Source: a virus. From it: a DNA stretch of 64,000 bases. The DNA lies in IMG/VR virus record IMGVR_UViG_3300017971_007885, positions 1-64,000 of that record; one strand, written 5' to 3'. Shown here piece after piece: positions 42,279 through 58,410 of the stretch. A model generated the notes under the pieces. That model had not been told where the DNA came from, searched no databases, and saw nothing but the letters and a program-made list of their open reading frames with translations. Position 1 is the stretch's first letter, and every line of letters starts with the position of its first letter. A program made the position numbers and the translations under genes.

Positions 42279-42481
42279 TGGCGGACACTAGAAAAACCGT
42301 CCGGCTTGGCCCGGAAGAGATGCAGCTTATACAGAAACTTAGGGTATTGCGGCGGAGCGATATCCATGGTATAATGGTAGTTAAATGGGAGCCATCGGCT
42401 CTTTCTATAGTCACGAAGACAGGCCAGATCGTTACCTACGAGTGCGGGAAACGCCGCACATCCGGAAACGGCACTATCTGA
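42278..42481 (+). CDS. small hypothetical protein
   Basis: TAATG coupling; contains internal promoter. Confidence 0.45.
   Translation: MADTRKTVRLGPEEMQLIQKLRVLRRSDIHGIMVVKWEPSALSIVTKTGQIVTYECGKRRTSGNGTI
42347..42375 (+). promoter_or_regulatory. sigma70-type promoter
   Basis: TTGCGG, 17 nt, TG-n-TATAAT. Confidence 0.55.
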
Positions 42482-42511
42482 CCACCCAACCGGATCGGTA
42501 TAGCCGATGAC

Positions 42512-42553
42512 GCGGGCATGCGCTTTACGGGCGCATGCCCGTTTTTGCGTTTT
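42512..42553 (+). terminator. intrinsic terminator/attenuator
   Basis: GCGGGCATGCGC-7nt-GCGCATGCCCGT stem followed by T-rich tract. Confidence 0.7.
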
Positions 42554-42568
42554 GGGAGCAGGTGCATA

Positions 42569-43147
42569 ATGCAACACGGCAGGGCCATGGTGGCATTCTT
42601 TTTGCCCCAGTACGCGAGTGAACAACTGGACTCATTCAAGGAGCACTTTCCGCCAGGCTCTGAAGTGACGCCGCTTCAGGATTATCATATCACCTTGGCC
42701 TATATGCCGGAAGTCAAGGATAAAGAGCTTTTGCGTGAAGTAGTCCGGGGGTTTGCACAAAACGAGCACCCAATATCCGGACAGATCGGTGGTATCGGGC
42801 GTTTTGCCCACGATGAAAAGGGTACAAACCCATTTTACACGTCTTTTGATGCTCCAGTGTTGCCAGGCTTCCGCCAAAGGCTAGTAGAAAAGCTTGGCCA
42901 ATACGGCATTGCGGTTTCAGAATTGCACGGCTTTATTCCACATTGCACCATGGCCTACATTCCAGCCAACACACACAACCCGGCCCTTGTGGTGCCATAT
43001 ATCGGGGTCACTTTTGATTGCATTTGGTTAGCATCCGACGATGATCGGGAACGGTTTCCGTTGGTATCCACGACGATGGAGCTAAAAAAAAGACTCGGGC
43101 CAAGAGCAAAAGCCCTTGCAGGAGTGATAGAGTATGCCAAGTCCTAG
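42569..43147 (+). CDS. 2H phosphoesterase (2'-5' RNA ligase/Acb1-like)
   Basis: two HxT motifs: YHITLAY and PHCTMAY. Confidence 0.8.
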   Translation: MQHGRAMVAFFLPQYASEQLDSFKEHFPPGSEVTPLQDYHITLAYMPEVKDKELLREVVRGFAQNEHPISGQIGGIGRFAHDEKGTNPFYTSFDAPVLPGFRQRLVEKLGQYGIAVSELHGFIPHCTMAYIPANTHNPALVVPYIGVTFDCIWLASDDDRERFPLVSTTMELKKRLGPRAKALAGVIEYAKS

Positions 43148-43829: not shown

Positions 43830-45569
43830 ATGAGCTTATCACTGACAGGGATGCAAGGTCTTCATGGCCTCATAGGTAGAGTGCGGTGGTTGTTGCGGGA
43901 TGACTTTTGCGACACGAGAGCGGCCGGCGCTGTCGATGGCACCCCGGCCACGCCTGGACCTGGAACGAGAACGGTGGTTGACACGGGCAATCACATGTCT
44001 GTGAATGGAGATTTTTTGACCACAGATGGGTCCGTTGCAACAGGAGATCCACGATGCTACTACAATGTTGTGTTTACTAGACAGGCCGGTCTAGTAGCTC
44101 TTTGTGATATTGAAACGAATTCACGGATCTATTTTGGATTTGATAGTGGCGTCGGGGCAGAGCCAGATCTAGCCGCCTTGTCGTTTAACGGAACGCCTCT
44201 TTTTGCTTGGGATGGTGGAGTGGCACGCCAGGTTGGAACCATAGTTCTTGGTGCAAAGTATAAACTGGGCATTGTGTTGCGCACATCAGGGCTGTACTGT
44301 TTCATCAAAGGACAAGCATTCACACATTGGACACTATTGTGGTTCAGTGCCGCAAATAATACAGCAAATTTGTATCTAGGGGCTTGTGGACGAACAGGCA
44401 CACTGGATAGTGATTTTATCCGTGTCCCAGACGCCCTATGGCTCCCAAACCCGCTTGCCCATGACTCTTTCACTCGTGCCAACGGGCCGCTAGGATCAAC
44501 GGAAGATACAGGGCCAGATGGACAACCGTCAACGATCAGGGTGTGGCAGTTGGGTGGGGCGACATGGGCCGTGAGTGCAAATGAAGCCGTCAACACGCCA
44601 ACGTTGGGATCGGAAGAATTGACCAACGGTAACTTTACAGCCTGGACCGGGGATGATCCGGATAATTGGTCCGTTTTACTTGAGGATGTGAACAACTATG
44701 TCACCGAAAATCCGGCCAACAACGCACAAGTTGTGTCGGACGGATCAGCAGGTGTCAATCTCCGGCAGTCTTGCATGGGCGAAGGGTGGTTTCGCATTCA
44801 AGCGGTCGTTTCTGCACATGCCGTTGGCGGGCTTAAAATCTACAACACTGATGGGGAATGGATTTTTCAAAGCGGAAAACCCAATGCGGTTGGAACGTGG
44901 GAGAGTAGCCAATACAACAGCGGTGTAGGAATGTCGCTCATCGTCCAGGCGGCGGCGGCCTGTGATATCACGCTTGATAGTGTCAGCGTGAAACGGCTGA
45001 CCACAAAAGAGCTATTCTCAGCCGTGCAAGTAGCAACGGCAGATGTACTTGCCAGTGTCGAGATTGACGCAATGCCAGTTTCAGGAACTGAATATGCCCA
45101 GGCCGGCCTTATGCTCAACCTTGACGATCCGGACAACCCGCAAAACTATGTGTTAGTCCTTATGGATACAGCACCGTTGTCACTCGGATTTGTGCGAATT
45201 CACAAGTGGGTAGCCGGGGTGAGGACGAATGTTGCAAACACAAGTGTTGCTTATGTACCCGGCGCAACGCTTGTAGCCGTTAAGGATGGCACATCCTATT
45301 CAGTGTACTATAACAACTCGCTCGTAGGAACGACACAGACCATTGCTGATGCCGGGATTATCAATAACACGTTACACGGCATGTTCAGCACGCACGAAGA
45401 CAACCAGTTAGACAACTTTCAGGTGTTCGCTCGTGGAACAGGTAACGAGTACAACCGGCTGGATGCGTGGTCATTTGACGGCAATTGTGCTGCCTGTGTT
45501 TGACTGCTTTTAATGGAATCAGGCGATTTCCTACTACTCGAAAGCGGGGACAAGATTTTATTGGAGTAA
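43830..45569 (+). CDS. virion fibre/decoration protein with in-frame UGA (45501-45503), candidate selenoprotein
   Basis: DSFTRANG and ELTNGNF carbohydrate-binding-type repeats; frame continues past TGA into LLLMESGDFLLLESGDKILLE; hairpin 11 nt after UGA. Confidence 0.65.
45515..45531 (+). promoter_or_regulatory. candidate bacterial SECIS element
   Basis: GGAATC-AGGC-GATTTCC, 17-nt stem-loop with bulged U, 11 nt after UGA. Confidence 0.55.
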
Positions 45570-50485: not shown

Positions 50486-51334
50486 ATGAGCCGGAGTGAT
50501 AGGGGAAGCCCTTCCGGGGCTTCCCCCACTGTACACCTTGTGGGCAAGCGAGATCCGTGGATCTTAGGCAGGTATGCCGATATCTTGACCGGGCGGCTTG
50601 GTTGGTCAATCGGAGAACGTCCAAAAACGGACGTGGCCTTGAACCTCTTTTGGCCTTACTTGTCGATCATGGTCGGGGATCCGCTCCCACAGACCAAGAA
50701 CGCCGCTTTTTTCACGCACCTTGAAGAAGCGGAAAGAGGCCGTACCCAGTCAAAAATAAACCGATGGCATAACGCGGCTCAAGTGGTGGACCTGCGGATC
50801 TGCATGACTGCCAAATACAGGGAGATCTTGGCTCCCCATGGGCCAACGGTGCACGTGCCGGTACCCATAGAAGAGCAGTTTGCGCCCTGCAAATTGCGGG
50901 TGGGTGTGGCCGGGAAGGTGTATGATTTATCTCGCAAGGGTGAAGACCTGGTGCGGCAATTGGTCAACACCAAAGAATTTGACGTGATCGGGGCCGGAGA
51001 AGGATGGCCGTGCCCCACAAAGTTTTACAAGTGGGCGGATATGCCCAAATTTTATCAATCGCTTGATGTGTTCCTGGTTACGTCTGAAGTGGAAGGCGGG
51101 CCGGTAACGATGCTAGAGGCGCTTAGATGTGGCGTGCCGGTTGTGGCTCCGGCACACGTGGGAATGGTGGATGAATTCCAGGTGGCCACATACAAGCGGG
51201 GCAATTTTCAATCAATGCTTGCCCGGCTCCGGACCTTCCAGTTGGGAAGGATAAAGCGATATCAGAGCGTGGCCAATAGAACGGTGGAAAACTTTGCGCA
51301 AGCCTGTCAACAAGCCATCGAACGGGTATGCTAA
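50486..51334 (+). CDS. GT-B (GT4-like) glycosyltransferase
   Basis: RKG; DVFLVTSEVEGGPVTMLEALRCGVPVV (E-x7-E). Confidence 0.85.
   Translation: MSRSDRGSPSGASPTVHLVGKRDPWILGRYADILTGRLGWSIGERPKTDVALNLFWPYLSIMVGDPLPQTKNAAFFTHLEEAERGRTQSKINRWHNAAQVVDLRICMTAKYREILAPHGPTVHVPVPIEEQFAPCKLRVGVAGKVYDLSRKGEDLVRQLVNTKEFDVIGAGEGWPCPTKFYKWADMPKFYQSLDVFLVTSEVEGGPVTMLEALRCGVPVVAPAHVGMVDEFQVATYKRGNFQSMLARLRTFQLGRIKRYQSVANRTVENFAQACQQAIERVC
50502..50526 (+). terminator. stable hairpin after capsid gene (possible attenuator)
   Basis: GGGGAAGCCC/GGGCTTCCCC 10-bp stem; no U-tract. Confidence 0.45.
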
Positions 51335-51983
51335 CACAGGGGCCATGTTTGTGGCTTATGGTCAGAAAGCGATCCAATGTTTCTATGATTGTGCGGAATC
51401 GCTCCGAGTGCATCACCCGGATATGCCTATAGTGGTGATCGGGGATCAATCAATCGTTTTCCCGAATTGCACGTGCCTACAGGAGCCAAGCACCGATATC
51501 GGAGCCAGAAGCATCAAGACTCAGATTTGGCGGTATGTACCCGATGGTTGGACATATGCGCTATACATGGATGTTGACACACTTGTATTGAAACCGCTAG
51601 ATCGTTTCTTGCAACCATTGCTTGACGGTTGGGAACTGGTTATGGTCCGGGATGAGTTGGCGGATGTAGTGGATCGGTGCCGACTCAAGAACAATGAAGA
51701 AAAGCAACACATCAAGAACGCTTTTGGGACCGGGGAACTAGTCCAGTTTGCGGGCGGTTTGTTTTCTTGGCGTATATGCCCAACAGTGCAACGTTTTTTC
51801 GAGATATGGCATGCAGAGTGGGGCCGTTTCAGCTTCAGGGATCAAGGGGCTTTGGTGCGGGCCTTGGCACTTACGCCGGTCAAACTTTGGCCACTCGGAT
51901 GGGCGGCCAATGCTTCCAAACGAGAGCATGCGATCGAAGTATGGCATATACACGGCAAGGCCAGAATGGCAGGTGCTCAATGA
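51294..51983 (+). CDS. GT-A (GT8-like) glycosyltransferase
   Basis: LYMDVDT (DxD), GG.F, RDQGAL..AL, H.HG. Confidence 0.75.
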   Translation: MRKPVNKPSNGYANTGAMFVAYGQKAIQCFYDCAESLRVHHPDMPIVVIGDQSIVFPNCTCLQEPSTDIGARSIKTQIWRYVPDGWTYALYMDVDTLVLKPLDRFLQPLLDGWELVMVRDELADVVDRCRLKNNEEKQHIKNAFGTGELVQFAGGLFSWRICPTVQRFFEIWHAEWGRFSFRDQGALVRALALTPVKLWPLGWAANASKREHAIEVWHIHGKARMAGAQ

Positions 51984-52999
51984 CTTGGTTACAAGCATGG
52001 ATTATCAATCAAGATCCGGTTGCCCAGTTGGCCGTAGCGGAAAAAGGTGGGCCGGGCTCCGGGAACTGGGGACACGCCGGAGTAAAGGGCACTCGTGGCG
52101 GATCTGCTCCTAAACGGGGCAAAGGTGCGGCCATGTCTTTGGCTACTGGCAAGGATTGGGAAGAGCGCCAGATGCAAACCATAGAAGATGCTTACTTGGC
52201 AGATGCTGAAGATAGTTCCAAGCGACTTTATCAAGCCGCCGTGAAGGGTGGCAAGCTGTCTACCAAAGAACAAAGAAAGGATGCCCTGAAGAGCTACAAA
52301 GCACTCAAAGAATTAGACCGGCATAGCATGTATGAGCCGATGGATGACTATCCGGCTATGTCGGAAGCCCTTGCCTATACTGTTAGTCATGGCAGTTTGA
52401 AACAAGCAAGGGCCAACTTCCAAGAAATTGCCGATCTGTTGGTAGATCCAAAACGTAAAGAAGAAGAAGAGTGGAAAGTGCACCGGGTGGATGCCATAAC
52501 ACGGGCCAGGGGTGAACGAGTGCCGGGCCTAAAGAAACAAGCAAAGCCAAAGCCGGTTGAGGTAGTAAAGCCGTCCGGACCGGAAGCAAAAAAGATCTTG
52601 GATGCCAAACCGGTCACGGATGACTATTATATAAACCGCCCAGTAAGCCGGAGAACGATCGGGGGCGGGGTAACAAGCGAATGGCAGAAGGTCAAGGCCA
52701 AGCCGGTTAAGGTAGCGGGCTATGAAGATCAAGATTTTTTCATTCACCGGCCATTGGGCTCCAGAAAAAGCGGTTGGACTATCTCAGAAGGCCGCACCGG
52801 TACATCACTTGTTTTACAATACGGCGGCACTCAGGCCAAAGCCATCCGAAAGCTTACGACTATACTGGACAAAATAAAGAAAGCAGGGCGGACCACGTTT
52901 CAGAACAAAATAACCAGTGCCGTGAACGCCAGTACACAAAGAGGTCAGCCTTTGCAATCGCCCCGCTATGGCGGAACAGGGCCAATATATAGGGGCTAG
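51980..52999 (+). CDS. tagged basic protein (putative internal virion protein)
   Basis: LQAWII...AEKGGPGSGNWGHAGVKGTRGGSAP. Confidence 0.7.
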   Translation: MTWLQAWIINQDPVAQLAVAEKGGPGSGNWGHAGVKGTRGGSAPKRGKGAAMSLATGKDWEERQMQTIEDAYLADAEDSSKRLYQAAVKGGKLSTKEQRKDALKSYKALKELDRHSMYEPMDDYPAMSEALAYTVSHGSLKQARANFQEIADLLVDPKRKEEEEWKVHRVDAITRARGERVPGLKKQAKPKPVEVVKPSGPEAKKILDAKPVTDDYYINRPVSRRTIGGGVTSEWQKVKAKPVKVAGYEDQDFFIHRPLGSRKSGWTISEGRTGTSLVLQYGGTQAKAIRKLTTILDKIKKAGRTTFQNKITSAVNASTQRGQPLQSPRYGGTGPIYRG

Positions 53000-53013
53000 A
53001 AGGGATACTTGAC

Positions 53014-53466
53014 GTGAAGCTACAACTTGGGGCCGGGGACCGGCCACGTCAAGGGTACATTAACAGCGATATTATCAAACTGCCAGGGATCCAGGTGATT
53101 CACGATCTGAATGTGCTTCCATGGCCCTGGGAAGATGGGAAATTTGAAGAGATCCTATCTTTGGCTGTGTTTGAACACTTGTGGCTCAGACTGGACACGA
53201 GTATAGAAGAGTGTTGGCGGCTCCTGAAGCCGGACGGCTTGCTTATTTTCAAAGTGCCAGATTGCAATTCCCCCACAGTGGCGGATGATCCACAACACAT
53301 TCATAGGGGATGGAGCAACCGGACTTTTGACTTCTTCGATCCGACTCGGGGCGAATATGGCAAGCGGGGCCAGATGTATGGATATCATCCATGGTCCGTT
53401 CTCTCGATCAAGCCGATAGCCAACGGGAATTCTTGGATGGTGCGCATGCGGAAGGTTGGGCAATGA
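53014..53466 (+). CDS. SAM methyltransferase (type 11-like)
   Basis: LQLGAG, HDLN..PWP, FEH, RLLKPDG, DPQH. Confidence 0.8.
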   Translation: MKLQLGAGDRPRQGYINSDIIKLPGIQVIHDLNVLPWPWEDGKFEEILSLAVFEHLWLRLDTSIEECWRLLKPDGLLIFKVPDCNSPTVADDPQHIHRGWSNRTFDFFDPTRGEYGKRGQMYGYHPWSVLSIKPIANGNSWMVRMRKVGQ

Positions 53467-54590
53467 GACAAACGATCTATAGATCGGGGACAAACAAAAT
53501 AGAGACGCCAAATCAAATATCCACGCCCACGCGCCAGGTGCCCTATGTTATGCCGCTTCACTATCCAGAAGTGATCTTGGACTGCTACAATGAAGGCGAT
53601 CAGGCACTTTTCATGTTTCCAGAAGCGTGGCTTGCCCCAGAGTATTGCAAGTTGGGCTTTAGGGTCTTGGCTCAAGGGTATGACATAGTTGTGCCGCTCC
53701 GGGAACATCAAGAAGAGCCGGTCATGTATGCCGGGCTTCTATGGATGGCCTTCAGCGATCCGGTAAAGGCGTTCTTGAGAGACTGGGCATTAAAGAGCCA
53801 GGAGCTTTATCCGTGGCGAGCCTTTCATGATGCGCTTTATGAGAGCGGGATCCGGGTATGGTATGCGCCGGCCACGTGGTGGAAGCAACCGACCTATGCC
53901 GGTATGGCCGTGATCATTCCTTGCTACAACCATGAAGAATTCTTGCTTGAAGCGGTAAACTCTGCGCTCCGGGCCAGGGCCGATCAGATTATCATTGTAG
54001 ACGATGGATCTCCGGGGGATGTGCTTGGGGCGCTTGCACCATTGATCAATCGAAGGAAAGCGCCGATCTTTGTGCTCAAGCAGGAAAACAAAGGCTTGCC
54101 CGCCGCCAGAAATGCCGGGATCCGGGCCACGACTATGCAGCATTGCATTGCTCTGGATGCTGACGATCGAATCTCGGATCATTACATTGCCAGGGCGAAA
54201 AAGGCGATCATCAAACACACATGGCTATATAGCAATGTCGAGCTTTTTGGTGACGCTCAGAGGGTGGTCAAGCCTAAAGTCAACAGGGCTTCGATGCGTG
54301 CAATGCAACCGACCAATGCCACTACAGTGGTTCCAAAGCACGCATGGCAGTTTGTGGGCGGGTACGATGAAACGATAGGTGGCTTTGAATCGTGGGACTT
54401 TTTATCAAGGCTCATACAGGCCAATTGGACACCACGCAAATTCACGGGCGTGGCCTACTATCGGAAACGGAACGGTGAAGGCATGTTGGCGGAAAAGGTT
54501 TTTGCTGACAAGCCAACTTACTTCAAGGGTTTGATAGATCGCAACCCGGTCTATTTCCGGGGTGCCTTCAAAGAGCACTTGCGTGAATAA
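53463..54590 (+). CDS. GT2 glycosyltransferase
   Basis: IIPCYN, IVDDGS, N.GL.AARNAG, LDADD, GGYDE, ESW. Confidence 0.85.
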   Translation: MRQTIYRSGTNKIETPNQISTPTRQVPYVMPLHYPEVILDCYNEGDQALFMFPEAWLAPEYCKLGFRVLAQGYDIVVPLREHQEEPVMYAGLLWMAFSDPVKAFLRDWALKSQELYPWRAFHDALYESGIRVWYAPATWWKQPTYAGMAVIIPCYNHEEFLLEAVNSALRARADQIIIVDDGSPGDVLGALAPLINRRKAPIFVLKQENKGLPAARNAGIRATTMQHCIALDADDRISDHYIARAKKAIIKHTWLYSNVELFGDAQRVVKPKVNRASMRAMQPTNATTVVPKHAWQFVGGYDETIGGFESWDFLSRLIQANWTPRKFTGVAYYRKRNGEGMLAEKVFADKPTYFKGLIDRNPVYFRGAFKEHLRE

Positions 54591-54610
54591 CGCTAGAAAG
54601 CAGGTCCAGA

Positions 54611-55156
54611 ATGGAACAAAGTACACGGATGGGGTTGGTTGAGTACATAGGAGCCAAGACGGCTTCTTTCTCAGTAGCCTATAACCCAACTCAGGGCCGG
54701 ACCGTGAACCGGATGTGGGCGGCCATTGGTAACGATCAATCGCCCATGATCAAACAAAGAAGGTGGTTGCCGGAGCCAGAGGCACGATTTTACAACGCTT
54801 TTGCGGACTTTAGGCTTTTGCGATGGGGATCGAGCGTTTCAACCGAACCGGTCAGAACGCCGGTGGTTACTGCATTCTCGGAGCCGATTCCGGAACCGCA
54901 AGCCCTTCCTTTGCACGTGCTTTTACAACAGCAAAGAGATGCAATGATGGCCGTTGCCCCGGCCGGCGCGATCGTGACCAAGGACATAGAAGAGATCGGG
55001 CCGCAATATCTCATGTCAAAATCTGGAACTGTTCACAGGCCAGAATGCTCTTCAGCCAAGAGGATCAAAACGCCGGTAGAATTCCATACGATGGAAGACG
55101 TAACCGCCGATCCGAACTTCAAAAAGTTTCATAGTTGTTGTGAGGGATTAACGTAA
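54611..55156 (+). CDS. hypothetical protein with C-terminal metal-binding motif
   Basis: YIG..T.SF.V N-domain; VHRPEC...HSCC. Confidence 0.6.
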   Translation: MEQSTRMGLVEYIGAKTASFSVAYNPTQGRTVNRMWAAIGNDQSPMIKQRRWLPEPEARFYNAFADFRLLRWGSSVSTEPVRTPVVTAFSEPIPEPQALPLHVLLQQQRDAMMAVAPAGAIVTKDIEEIGPQYLMSKSGTVHRPECSSAKRIKTPVEFHTMEDVTADPNFKKFHSCCEGLT

Positions 55157-55395
55157 TGGGTTGAGGGTGCCCAACTCGGACGGGTCCGAGCAGAACCAGG
55201 CCACGGCGGATTTTCAAACCAGATCCAACGTGGAAGCAGATCCTGTACATCGGTGGGCGTGCGGGCACGTTTACCGTGCCGGGAGGATATACCGGCCAAG
55301 ATTACGCTATTTGTCCAAATACGCTTATACCAGTGCACCCACGGGACATGCCTTTTTTTGAGGGTAGGCCAAGGGAGTATAAAACAGTATGGTGA
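55156..55395 (+). CDS. 79-aa candidate selenoprotein (M-G-U-G-C...), missed by ORF track
   Basis: TAATG-coupled start, GAGGG RBS, TGA at codon 3, 76 further open codons, stop overlaps next ATG; SECIS-like hairpin. Confidence 0.7.
55175..55190 (+). promoter_or_regulatory. candidate bacterial SECIS element
   Basis: CTCGGAC-GG-GTCCGAG perfect inverted repeat 10 nt after UGA. Confidence 0.65.
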
Positions 55396-56594
55396 ATCCA
55401 AGTCCGTTTTATGCGCCGGGCTTTATCGCTCCAGGTATCGCACCGGTGCCGATCTCACTAACTGAATACATCCAAACCACAGGGATCAACGAATATCTAT
55501 TCTATGGCGTGAAACGGGGCGCTTACGTGCCGGAAAGTACCCAATTTTACGACTTTTGGGATCGCCAGATGATTTATCAATACCTGCGGGCGGCGGAGCG
55601 CCAGATCGAGAACAAGATCCGGGTCCACCTTACCCCTACTTGGGCGGATGAAGACGGCGAAGAAGTGATCGTGGCAGATATGCGCGGCTATGTCTCAACA
55701 TCGGGCCGCTCTGGGTACTATGCATGGCACGATTTTGCAGGTGCGTGGCCCTGGAGTGGGAGCGGATCGTACTATTACAACCCAACAAGCTTGGACTGGA
55801 AGGCATTTATCCAGGCCGGGCAAAGAAAAACTTCTGTATACGCCGCCCATGCCACGGTTTCATATGGCGGTGACTGGGCAAAAGTGACCGTTCCAAGTGG
55901 CGGGGTGGGCTCCAAGGACGAAATACGGGTATTTTATGCCGATGGCACCCATACCTATGGGCCAGAGCCGTCCAAGATCAAAGTGGGACCGAACAACATT
56001 ATCATTACATGGCCAAAGGTCCGGATGGTTAAGCCAGAACTGAGCACCAGGCACAACTTGCCGGTGGACTTTGACGATAACAACAACTTTGTGGAAACGA
56101 TCACAGTGGCCCGAGAGTACAACGATCCAAGTGTTCAAGCCGTGGTCAGAACACGCCGGAACTGCAATACAACCGCATGCCAGGAGAGCACGGAAACAGC
56201 TTGTATCTTTCCTTCAGAACGGGAACTTGGTTATGTGGCCATCTATCCGGCTTGCTATGGCGGTGGACAGTGGCGGCGGCGGACGGCATTCCAGGGAATC
56301 CCAGATGTGGCGTTTCTGCATTATCAATCAGGGCTGAAGACCTTGCCGCCAGGGTGGGATCAAGCGATCATCCGCCTTGCTCACACGATTATGCCAGAAG
56401 CACCATGTCCGACAGGTCACCAACCCCAAGATCGTTTCTGGAGCAGGGACCGGAACATGAGCCATTCACAAACCCGAGAGCGGATCAATTGTCCGTGGGG
56501 GCTAATGGATGGGGCGTGGTACTCCTGGATGTTTTTCGAGGAACAAGAGCAGAATTATAGCAAAGGGGGTGGTTTACTTGCCTTCAGAGGATAA
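55389..56594 (+). CDS. head-tail connector/adaptor-like protein
   Basis: YLRAAERQIENKI and Y.SG...P...QAIIRLA connector-type motifs; position. Confidence 0.55.
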   Translation: MVNPSPFYAPGFIAPGIAPVPISLTEYIQTTGINEYLFYGVKRGAYVPESTQFYDFWDRQMIYQYLRAAERQIENKIRVHLTPTWADEDGEEVIVADMRGYVSTSGRSGYYAWHDFAGAWPWSGSGSYYYNPTSLDWKAFIQAGQRKTSVYAAHATVSYGGDWAKVTVPSGGVGSKDEIRVFYADGTHTYGPEPSKIKVGPNNIIITWPKVRMVKPELSTRHNLPVDFDDNNNFVETITVAREYNDPSVQAVVRTRRNCNTTACQESTETACIFPSERELGYVAIYPACYGGGQWRRRTAFQGIPDVAFLHYQSGLKTLPPGWDQAIIRLAHTIMPEAPCPTGHQPQDRFWSRDRNMSHSQTRERINCPWGLMDGAWYSWMFFEEQEQNYSKGGGLLAFRG

Positions 56595-56907
56595 ACAGAT
56601 CGTATTTTTCGATCCTAGAAACTACCGGAGAGGCAATCCCAATGTGATCTTGTTTCATAGCAACCGCTTCTTGATCTTGCCCTTATCTGAGGTAGCCATA
56701 GCTGAAGATGGTATTTTGTCCGTTGATCAAGTCAACTTGGCTTGTGCATTTGATGTAACCCCAGACTTGCCGCCCCGAGTGGTGGGAAGCGCGTGGAAAC
56801 ATCACATTGTTTTCAATACAGAAGTAGATCCAGTGTGGGCCGTAGGTGTAGCCCGATCGTGTGACCTATCCGCAAGTGAGATTGTGGACAAATTCATGGA
56901 GGTATAA
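56569..56907 (+). CDS. hypothetical protein (start uncertain)
   Basis: fills gap before tail gene. Confidence 0.5.
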   Translation: MVYLPSEDKQIVFFDPRNYRRGNPNVILFHSNRFLILPLSEVAIAEDGILSVDQVNLACAFDVTPDLPPRVVGSAWKHHIVFNTEVDPVWAVGVARSCDLSASEIVDKFMEV

Positions 56908-56910
56908 GAA

Positions 56911-58410
56911 ATGTCAACAACCGTTGATCAAACAACTATCCAAAGGGGGTTTCAAACCCCATTCCTAAAGATCCATCCTTCCATCGATCCATACGAGTAC
57001 ACGGGCGATTGTTCACGGCTTCAAGGCGTAACAAAACCCCTTGGCGATGTGGAACACACGGAATGTATGGATGCAACCCAGGCCACGGGCTTCCGGGAAG
57101 ACTCGGAGATCGTCTCACGGCCAGGATCCACCACGGGCACCATGGTGATGAAGAAGAGTATTGTCAATGCGATCAAGGCTGAACTCTGGGCAGATTGCAG
57201 ATGGAACATTGACATTAGGCTTCAGCTAGAGGGTACCGGCTCCAGGTCCGATCAAATGAACTGGAACGCAATCGATCGGTATATCCGGTCCAAGTACACC
57301 GAGTATGCTACTGACGACGAAACGGTATACACTCGGGACGATCAAGGCGAAGTCTTGATCACGATGCCCTTTAGTGCGCCGCCTTTGTCGTTTTACAACA
57401 TCCGCAAGCTGGATGCCCAATTGATCGATACTGACAAGGCCGGAAACATCACATGTATAACGTGGCTTGCCCATGAAGAGTGCCCCAGTGTCAACGGGCC
57501 GGCCGTGGGGTGCAAGATGGCTGTGGGAACGGCTGACATCGGTGGTAACCCACAGGTAGGATTATCAAGCGACGGTGGCCAAACCTGGACTTGGTTTACC
57601 TTTGATGGCACGAACAACACGCCAACGTGGACCAACCCGATTACTGGAATCAGCGGGATCGATGACTTGATCGTGGTGGTCAGTGCGGCGGAAGGGTCAC
57701 ATGCGTATTCCACAGACGGCGGAACCACGTGGGCGGAAGTCACGCTTGCCGACTATGCCGCCAATGCCCCCCAGGCCGTGGTAGTGCAATCGCCTACAGC
57801 TATATGGATTGCCGGTGCCAACGGGTATATCTGGTTCTCGGATGACGGCGCTGTAACAGCAACCACGGCGGACGGTGGGAACCCCGGTGTGGTCACGTCA
57901 AGCAACCTGCTCCGGATCAAGGCGCTATCCGATCGCTTTATCATTGCCGTGGGTGCATCCAATGCCATCGTAAAATCTGAGAACGGCGGCGAAACCTGGA
58001 GCCTGGTTACAGGGCCGGCGGCTCAAGCGGCGGTGCAAGCCAATTCGATCGCAATGTGGGATCAAAACATTTGGCTTGTGGTCTATGAAGACGGCGAGGC
58101 TTACTGGACCGACGATGCCGGAACAACCTGGACCGAGGATACCCAGATCACAGACAAGGCTTTGACGGCGCTCAACGATGTTGCCGTGCATAAAGCGGAA
58201 CGGTATGTGATGGTGGGTGAAGACGGCGATGGTAACGGGATCATTTTGGACAACATCCACGGTGCCCCCGGCAAGTGGGCAGAAATCGCAGAGCCGTCCG
58301 ATGTGCAGGAGCTTTTCCAGGTGATCACGTGTGATCAAAACCTTTGGGTAGCAACCGGCGAAGTCACCTATGTGGGTGCCGAAGGCGCGATCGTTCGAGC
58401 GGTGGCCTAA
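56911..58410 (+). CDS. probable major tail protein with BNR/Asp-box propeller domain
   Basis: GGAGG RBS; directly upstream of chaperones; repeated S.DGG.TW motifs. Confidence 0.6.
   Translation: MSTTVDQTTIQRGFQTPFLKIHPSIDPYEYTGDCSRLQGVTKPLGDVEHTECMDATQATGFREDSEIVSRPGSTTGTMVMKKSIVNAIKAELWADCRWNIDIRLQLEGTGSRSDQMNWNAIDRYIRSKYTEYATDDETVYTRDDQGEVLITMPFSAPPLSFYNIRKLDAQLIDTDKAGNITCITWLAHEECPSVNGPAVGCKMAVGTADIGGNPQVGLSSDGGQTWTWFTFDGTNNTPTWTNPITGISGIDDLIVVVSAAEGSHAYSTDGGTTWAEVTLADYAANAPQAVVVQSPTAIWIAGANGYIWFSDDGAVTATTADGGNPGVVTSSNLLRIKALSDRFIIAVGASNAIVKSENGGETWSLVTGPAAQAAVQANSIAMWDQNIWLVVYEDGEAYWTDDAGTTWTEDTQITDKALTALNDVAVHKAERYVMVGEDGDGNGIILDNIHGAPGKWAEIAEPSDVQELFQVITCDQNLWVATGEVTYVGAEGAIVRAVA

Follow-up and report, generated by a model that had tools for sequence, protein, structure and literature searches.

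Programmed passage of stop codons is known from phage genes. In Qbeta, a UGA sets the level of A1 readthrough; Trp is inserted there and no particular residue is demanded. The bypass in T4 gene 60 leaves codons unread and depends on a long nascent peptide. Some phages have gone further and reassigned a stop codon, so that TAG or TGA is recoded in late genes under code 15 or code 4 (PMC9523058).

Selenocysteine (Sec) is a different case, since here a UGA is redefined at one site by a hairpin. The consensus for bacterial SECIS elements (bSECISearch, and a 2026 review of prokaryotic selenoproteomes, PMC13188914) has a stem of 4–16 bp and a loop of 3–9 nt, in which base 1, base 2 or both are G, usually followed by G or U. 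The distance from the UGA to the loop is 16–37 nt and the MFE is -7.5 kcal/mol or lower. Phages are not mentioned in the 2026 review, and the virus-encoded selenoproteins named in a review of recoding (PMC8310308) are only two poxvirus genes, the glutathione peroxidases (GPx) of molluscum contagiosum and fowlpox. Our literature search for phage selenoproteins found none. The candidate gene described here may encode the first one.

Genome setting

The window that we analyzed covers the initial 64 kb of a record of 100,482 bp, which IMG/VR classes as a provirus and which has a CheckV completeness of 92%. The parent contig is 109.8 kb long and includes about 9 kb of flanking host DNA. Every large ORF in the window is on the + strand. 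We found no host-like genes at the ends of the record, and the taxa of the ESM Atlas matches were uninformative on the host.

The gene lies in a late-looking region. Reading along the + strand, this region has a GT1 glycosyltransferase at 50486, a SAM methyltransferase at 53014, a GT2 glycosyltransferase at 53391–54590 (Pfam PF00535, E 4.5e-20), a 181-aa gene at 54611–55156 whose product ends in ...SCCEGLT, a conserved Cys-rich 401-aa protein at 55389–56594, and a BNR/sortilin-like protein at 56911. Pfam and PHROG searches gave no match for the 181-aa gene. We used the 401-aa protein as a synteny anchor, and the small gene sits directly upstream of it, in the 232 nt “gap” that follows the 181-aa gene. 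GenBank phages had no DNA or protein matches to the region, to the protein family described below, to the 481-aa protein or to the 401-aa protein, and no cultured phage resembles the late-region genes around 50486–56911. Intermediate relatives were seen as well, namely P0003, P0004 (78%) and P0006 (48%).

A gene hidden by an in-frame UGA

The gene spans 55156–55395 on the + strand and has 79 codons and a stop. Its layout is as the first-pass annotation had described it. A Shine-Dalgarno-like GAGGG (55142–55146) stands 9 nt 5' of the ATG, and the ATG (55156–55158) overlaps the TAA (55154–55156) of the 181-aa gene as TAATG. The codons then read ATG GGT TGA GGG TGC, with the candidate Sec codon at 55162–55164 (residue 3) and the TGC at 55168–55170, followed by 74 more sense codons up to a TGA at 55393–55395. 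This last TGA overlaps the start of the next gene, whose ATG is at 55389 (ATGGTGA). The predicted product is M-G-[UGA]-G-C, a basic linker and a beta domain.

As the first-pass annotation had noted, no alternative start codon lies between the UGA and the YIGG segment. Between 55165 and 55275 there are no in-frame ATG, GTG or TTG codons, and the first canonical start is GTG 55276, which is already past that segment. From the UGA to 55192 there are no ATG, GTG, TTG, CTG or ATN codons at all.

The TGA at 55162–55164 is genuine and is not an assembly error, because the same base is present in both co-occurring alleles, in contigs from three runs of three studies. TGY was seen in none of them, so the possibility that reads would show TGT or TGC at codon 3 did not hold. 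Relatives in IMG/VR and JGI likewise have TGA at codon 3. The gene is overlooked entirely by gene callers: a search with the 76-aa product against a collection of 5.8 billion sequences gave no matches at 41–133 aa, and the frame is absent from that collection. No RNA runs are listed as containing the stretch.

Coding signal in the frame

For comparison we used a sister lineage, which consists of two IMG/VR records that are identical to each other over 54611–56594, one of them also a JGI contig (labels L001 = L082 and L002 = L003 = L083). It is 92% identical to the candidate ORF with no indels. The 31 substitutions relative to L001 in 55165–55392 fall 6/2/23 on codon positions 1/2/3 (P = 4e-6 against equal thirds), leaving 21 changed codons synonymous and six non-synonymous; one of the changes is CGG to AGA, which retains Arg. 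The pattern also holds in 55193–55275, which is 5' of any canonical start: there the counts are 3/1/13, with 13 of 17 substitutions at the third position (P = 3e-4). The adjoining genes show the same substitution pattern, each in its own frame. In the antisense 90-aa ORF the same changes would land on first codon positions, and this ORF was called nowhere.

The frame is coding from at least 55192 and is under purifying selection. We judge that the gap holds a real, expressed gene for a predicted protein of 79 residues. Because the frame is coding and there is no other start, the ribosome must either decode the UGA or skip a multiple of three nucleotides there. We rejected frameshifting at GGU-UGA, as either shift exits the frame with the coding signal, and transcriptional slippage at the A5 run at 55121–55125, which leads into the TAG at 55132.

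The gene is present in only two close lineages, so stem covariation and a nearby independent switch between Sec and Cys are absent. With just two codons upstream of the UGA, conservation on its two sides is also a thin argument.

A Cys-pair family with a beta domain

By profile, motif and gene order, the predicted small protein is a stand-alone member of a large phage family without annotation. Its members combine a Cys pair at the N-terminus with a basic linker and a small beta domain, and they are either fused to GT2 or stand alone. The relatives that we used come from loci with distant kin of the 401-aa neighbor (~30% identity), where the upstream GT2 bears the module at its C-terminus. In these fusions the module reads ...Y-x-G-E-R-P-M-G-C-C-G-G, then a basic linker of 20–35 residues, then a core of Y-x-G-G...G...T-G..Y...V-D-x-R-D.

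We built family profiles from 4 or 20 relatives, leaving out the candidate's lineage. They match the candidate ORF with E-values of 2.4e-4 and 3e-3 among 8,461 six-frame ORFs (17–20 bits; 2.5e-7 one-to-one). An AF2 model from alignment A2 has five strands and one helix, with a pLDDT of ~90 over residues 25–79 and a disordered stretch of 20 residues at the N-terminus. The model and the profile match to the family core together place the beta domain at residues 26–79 (55231–55392). The first-pass annotation had drawn its support for the frame from a resemblance to the N-terminal part of the 181-aa gene before it. That resemblance is insignificant (-0.7 bits against the family HMM), and the real support for the frame is the large family and not paralogy with the preceding gene.

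When 1.84 billion representatives were searched with the profile, 1,216 clusters matched at E ≤ 1e-3, 238 of them at ≤ 1e-10. We took a census of the N-terminal motif among the best 150 representatives, 136 of which include it; about 14 have a called N-terminus that lies past the motif. The motif is CC in 134, CxxC in one and Cx4C in one, and Trp occurs in none. Of the 136, 56 stand alone and start exactly at the motif Met, and the other 80 are fusions. The loci that we examined have further variants, which are M-A-C-G-C (L014), C-G-S-C, C-K-G-C, C-G-G-C and C-G-P-C. The candidate's UGA aligns with the first, near-invariant Cys of the pair, and its TGC with the second (alignment A2). Two alternatives that the first-pass annotation had raised against itself can thus be set aside: homologs have Cys and not Trp at the UGA position (compare M-A-C-G-C with M-G-U-G-C), and they start at the same Met and not downstream.

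A GGAG-type SD lies 6–9 nt 5' of the homologous ATG in 15 of 15 distinct fused genes, and so the motif Met is probably an internal start in the GT2-fused genes too. The M-(G/A/S)-C-C-G motif behind an SD is likewise present in the candidate, provided that its UGA stands for Sec or Cys. The candidate is therefore like the rest of the family in its Met start behind an SD, its Cys-pair site at residues 3–5, its basic linker, its core motifs (Y-x-G-G...T-G..Y...D-x-R-D) and its adjacency to a GT2. It differs in that the first Cys position is encoded by UGA, and at 79 aa it is shorter than most members and is without their HhH-like or HeH-like C-terminal tail. We spotted such tails by eye in many stand-alone members.

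Pfam and PHROGs have no entry for the family. Foldseek found no match in the PDB below E ~0.8, and the ESM Atlas matches were viral hypothetical proteins only. The GT2 fusion, the disordered Cys pair, the basic linker and the HhH-like or HeH-like tails suggest that the module may act with glycosyltransferases. The Cys pair could serve in redox chemistry, as a metal site or as a site of modification, in connection with the neighboring glycosyltransferases; this is the weakest step, and we draw it from the gene fusion only.

We looked for other UGA forms in the family with narrow pattern scans of IMG/VR (P-M-G-U-C-G-G, SD-M-G-U-C-G-G and SD-M-G-C-U-G-G) and found none; the scans gave chance matches only, with the domain absent. 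P0116 seemed to be a truncated family member, and its relative has a normal CC. For P0115, a relative in IMG/VR was not found.

The hairpin after the UGA

The first-pass annotation had described a perfect hairpin 10 nt after the UGA. The hairpin and the spacer are real, but the 2-nt loop that it was given is physically impossible, so we describe the element instead as a 6-bp stem with a CGGG tetraloop at 55175–55190 (+ strand, arms 55175–55180 and 55185–55190). In this form it fits the bacterial SECIS consensus. The stem and the 4-nt loop are within the consensus sizes and the loop reads C-G-G-G. The distance from the UGA to the loop is 16 nt (the 10-nt spacer and a 6-nt arm), which is at the lower limit, and the energy of the hairpin alone is -8.2 kcal/mol (z = -2.35 relative to shuffled sequences). 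Folding of the 39 nt that start at the UGA gives -10.6 kcal/mol. Taken in contexts of 39–66 nt, the fold is unexceptional (z of 0.08 to 0.85), and an equally stable local fold follows ~5% of all genomic TGA triplets. Rfam had no match at 55000–55500 or in the remaining 36 kb.

The 39 nt of 55154–55192, which hold the UGA and the hairpin, have no substitutions between the lineages (P ~0.012), and no changes at their 9–10 third positions (P ~0.015–0.02). The next six codons after 55192 have five changes. This argues for a constraint that acts at the RNA level on 55154–55192, because in the protein the invariant stretch corresponds to the linker, where family members are least alike.

Counted from the AUG, the hairpin starts at +20. 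It would lie just outside the initiating ribosome, and failed decoding at codon 3 would cost only a dipeptide.

A second candidate site

A second candidate recoding site is at 45501–45569 (+ strand), at the end of gene 43830. The 557-aa protein of this gene ends in ...C-A-A-C-V before a TGA at 45501–45503. After an 11-nt spacer there is a hairpin at 45515–45530 with a 6-bp stem and an AGGC loop, and the frame continues as a 21-codon LLLE-type tag to a TAA at 45567–45569, 4 nt before the next gene. The hairpin reaches -10.4 kcal/mol only when the lower stem is included.

The homolog in G001 (49% identity) encodes the tag in frame and free of stops, and in G002 the tag is absent. G003 and G004 do not have the 557-aa gene. 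In G001, the sole informative relative, the UGA aligns with Pro or Gly and there is no Cys there, and so plain readthrough fits this site as well as Sec does. At 42479 there is one more TGA junction in the same frame; it is just a gene end followed by a terminator.

After having seen both sites, we set a shared criterion: a stem of at least 5 bp and a 4-nt loop with GG at positions 2–3, located 9–12 nt after a TGA. Nine of the 1,739 TGA triplets have such a hairpin, and the other seven are out of frame with short open frames. Since the hairpins at 55162 and 45501 share this design, we take it to suggest one trans-acting reader for both sites.

Genetic code and Sec machinery

The genetic code of the phage is standard and TGA is not reassigned: among the genuine stops TGA is used most often (54 of 138 ORFs, many as ATGA overlaps) and ARAGORN found no tRNA in the genome. 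We found only two in-frame TGA sites. For these reasons we rejected TGA as a sense codon under table 4 or table 25. SelA, SelB, SelD and tRNA-Sec were not found in the phage record either. Without Sec genes or a tRNA of its own, the phage would have to recode any site specifically, by way of host factors.

As for the host, two MAGs with distant relatives encode SelB, with an unproven connection to the candidate's phage. The 401-aa family occurs in just one of 401 Chloroflexota genomes, which is the MAG from which the search had started, so the contigs of the two MAGs may simply be binned phage DNA.

How the UGA may be read

We consider Sec recoding at UGA 55162–55164 to be the best explanation, and we lean towards it with limited confidence. 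The TAATG overlap and the SD would couple translation of the small gene, from ATG 55156 on, to that of the upstream gene. At codon 3 the hairpin at 55175–55190 would then recruit SelB and Sec-tRNA(Sec) of the host, and the UGA would be redefined as Sec; with the UGA in the A site, the hairpin would be at the mRNA entrance. Where the family has C-C, C-x-C or C-x-x-C, the N-terminus of the product would bear a selenol/thiol motif, U-x-C. We favor Sec because the UGA falls on an invariant Cys, a consensus hairpin follows at the right distance, the RNA is frozen there and TGA is otherwise a normal stop. Several points go against it. The hairpin is short, its spacing is at the lower limit and the family yielded no second UGA form in the narrow scans. 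Of the U-x-C selenoprotein that the first-pass annotation had proposed, the coding frame, the Cys homologs and the consensus hairpin are borne out. The identity of the residue as Sec we infer, as we do SelB dependence and a Sec-competent host.

The main rival, which we think unlikely, is leaky termination that needs no SECIS. A near-cognate tRNA (mainly for Trp, less often for Cys or Arg) would read the UGA, and codon 3 would act as a throttle on expression; at 45501, the UGA would determine how much of the protein is made with and without the tag. An ORF under purifying selection with no other start is just as expected here. The rival also gains from there being two UGA sites in one phage, the second aligned with a non-Cys residue in G001, and from a hairpin that is thermodynamically ordinary in longer contexts. 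However, leaky termination gives no account of why, among more than 130 representatives, the replaced residue is virtually always Cys and never Trp. Similar hairpins with an NGGN loop 10–11 nt after both UGAs also speak against it, as does a hairpin region that is invariant despite encoding a variable linker. To our knowledge, there is no described case in bacteria of near-cognate readthrough that a hairpin stimulates, which again counts against leaky termination.

The same hairpin could instead direct the insertion of Cys, through SelB and a host selC* tRNA of the tRNA(ReC) type. tRNA(ReC) decodes UGA as Cys given a downstream SECIS, and is known from sediment phyla such as Desulfobacterota (Vargas-Rodriguez et al. 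2018, in the account given by PMC13582414). The cis-elements would be identical to those for Sec, and the family residue at the UGA position is Cys. Yet tRNA(ReC) occurs in a minority of genomes (PMC13582414) and there is no evident gain over a plain TGC codon, so we consider this improbable.

Skipping of the UGA we regard as very improbable. The ribosome would hop from GGU 55159 to GGU 55183, as in T4 gene 60, or translation would start without a canonical codon, for example at ACG 55180. The arrangement itself is suggestive: a Gly codon is followed by a stop, an identical Gly codon is in frame 21 nt further on with the hairpin between them, and all of this is kept in the relative, which provides the matched take-off and landing codons of a gene 60-type bypass. 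But the nascent chain would be only two residues long at take-off, insufficient for a gene 60-type peptide signal. Both residues of the Cys pair would be lost, although the skipped G-C after the UGA matches the family motif. A start at ACG has no SD at the proper distance and would initiate very poorly.

It is scarcely credible that the gene was recently inactivated, by a TGY-to-TGA nonsense change in a redundant paralog with a chance hairpin: carriage by one lineage pair only and a possible second beta-domain copy in the 181-aa gene (an insignificant likeness) would fit, but the TGA is kept in both lineages at about 11–14% DNA divergence, the codon changes since their split are 21 synonymous against 6 non-synonymous with no indels or new stops, and both alleles persist across three studies.

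Returning to Sec recoding, the two sites taken together would make a small selenoproteome of the phage's own that runs on host SelB. It would have Sec at residue 3 of the small protein and Sec joining a structural protein to its LLLE-type tag, each with the shared 6-bp/NGGN hairpin 10–11 nt after the UGA. We regard this larger reading as possible but would stop short of calling it probable.

Implications

If Sec recoding is correct, the use of Sec would extend to bacteriophages. Phage production would be tied to selenium and to the Sec trait of the host, and this trait could be used as a host-range marker. Should both sites encode Sec, some late-region proteins would depend on the selenium supply. 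As Sec is normally found where a catalytic or redox Cys would otherwise stand, Sec recoding would also be a clue to the chemistry of a family with more than 1,200 clusters. A very short SECIS 20 nt from the start codon would be useful for engineering N-terminal Sec. Since gene callers overlook a gene like this one, similar cases may hide in the “intergenic gaps” of other phages.

Comparison with known systems

Phage stop-codon reassignment resembles our case in that in-frame stops occur in genes of the late region. It differs because we have only two sites, TGA is the commonest real stop and a suppressor tRNA is absent. Qbeta A1 and T4 gene 60 resemble it in being programmed passages of a stop in phage genes, and the site at 45501 resembles a C-terminal extension of the A1 type; in the small gene, however, the stop is aligned with a conserved Cys.

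The poxvirus selenoproteins are a viral parallel. There a UGA in a virus gene is redefined as Sec by the host's machinery, which is the reading that we propose for the candidate. The poxvirus genes are captured cellular GPx with a eukaryotic SECIS, whereas the candidate belongs to a phage-specific family and has a bacterial-type hairpin beside the UGA.

There is also a likeness to bacterial SelB/SECIS genes such as E. coli fdhF. Shared with these are the in-frame UGA, a hairpin that starts 10–11 nt downstream and whose apical loop contains G, homologs with Cys and a nearby Cys (UxC). The candidate differs in being carried by a phage without Sec genes of its own, in having the UGA at codon 3 and in belonging to a family that is not a known oxidoreductase, and its hairpin does not have the bulged U of fdhF. 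The mechanism would thus be the known bacterial one, and the phage carrier, the codon-3 position and the protein family would be new.

In-frame TGA codons elsewhere in the window

A second in-frame TGA lies at the end of the 557-aa protein encoded from 43830, where the codon at 45501-45503 separates the protein from a 21-codon LLLE-type tag (TGA and tag, 45501-45569). This TGA is followed by a hairpin with an 11-nt spacer, a 6-bp stem and an AGGC loop, which is the same design as the hairpin of the small M-G-U-G-C gene (55156-55395). The homologue of the 557-aa protein in G001, the closest different phage, encodes an LLLE-type tag without an intervening stop, and the homologue in the relative G002 has no tag.

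At 42479-42571, a 72-aa ORF terminating in TGA shares its frame with the next ORF, which is 2H-phosphoesterase-like. We rejected recoding here because a GC-rich terminator hairpin and a T-run lie between the ORFs and the downstream gene has its own Shine-Dalgarno motif and ATG (42569).

Surroundings of the small gene

The 181-aa protein encoded just upstream ends in H-S-C-C-E-G-L-T (55130-55153). This second Cys-Cys motif is only five codons upstream of M-G-U-G-C, and the same ending is kept in the sister lineage (L001). One representative of the Cys-pair/beta-domain family has the N-terminus M-C-C-E-G.

At 54600-56600 there are two alleles, that of the window and that of L001, which differ by about 11% in DNA. 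Three sequencing runs, belonging to three metagenome studies of sediment and seawater, each contain both. In the Logan unitigs, the splits coincide exactly with the variable blocks, and the invariant stretch 55073-55163 is covered by merged sequence.

Short contigs carrying the family of the downstream 401-aa protein (L098 and L099 in G005, L100 in G006) were binned in one Anaerolineae MAG and one Gemmatimonadota MAG, both of which encode SelB. Chance binning of phage DNA may account for these contigs, since the 401-aa family was not found in any of 400 other Chloroflexota genomes searched.

Stand-alone and fused family members

Many stand-alone members of the family have, after a Pro/Ala/Glu-rich linker, a C-terminal motif that by eye looks helix-hairpin-helix or HeH/SAP-like, with residues such as E-Q-A-G-K-x-R (P0015, P0016, P0025, P0115, P0116, P0146, P0155 and P0158 are examples). 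Such tails hint at DNA binding.

Among the GT2 fusion genes, all 15 distinct ones (L114:1133-1153, L121:1420-1440 and 13 others) have a GGAG-type Shine-Dalgarno motif, encoded by the residues Y-x-G-E-R-P, 6-9 nt 5' of the conserved ATG of M-G-C-C-G-G. Because of this constant arrangement, the sequences suggest an internal translation start that would additionally yield a separate protein consisting of the Cys-pair/beta module.

In G001 the module reads C-G-P-C-S-G, has no Met and is fused to GT2 (L113:7591-8601), and the fusion gene is followed by a sulfotransferase-like gene, a small membrane protein and the 401-aa homologue. Judged from this form of the module and the intervening genes, the glycosylation block is apparently a mosaic among the relatives.
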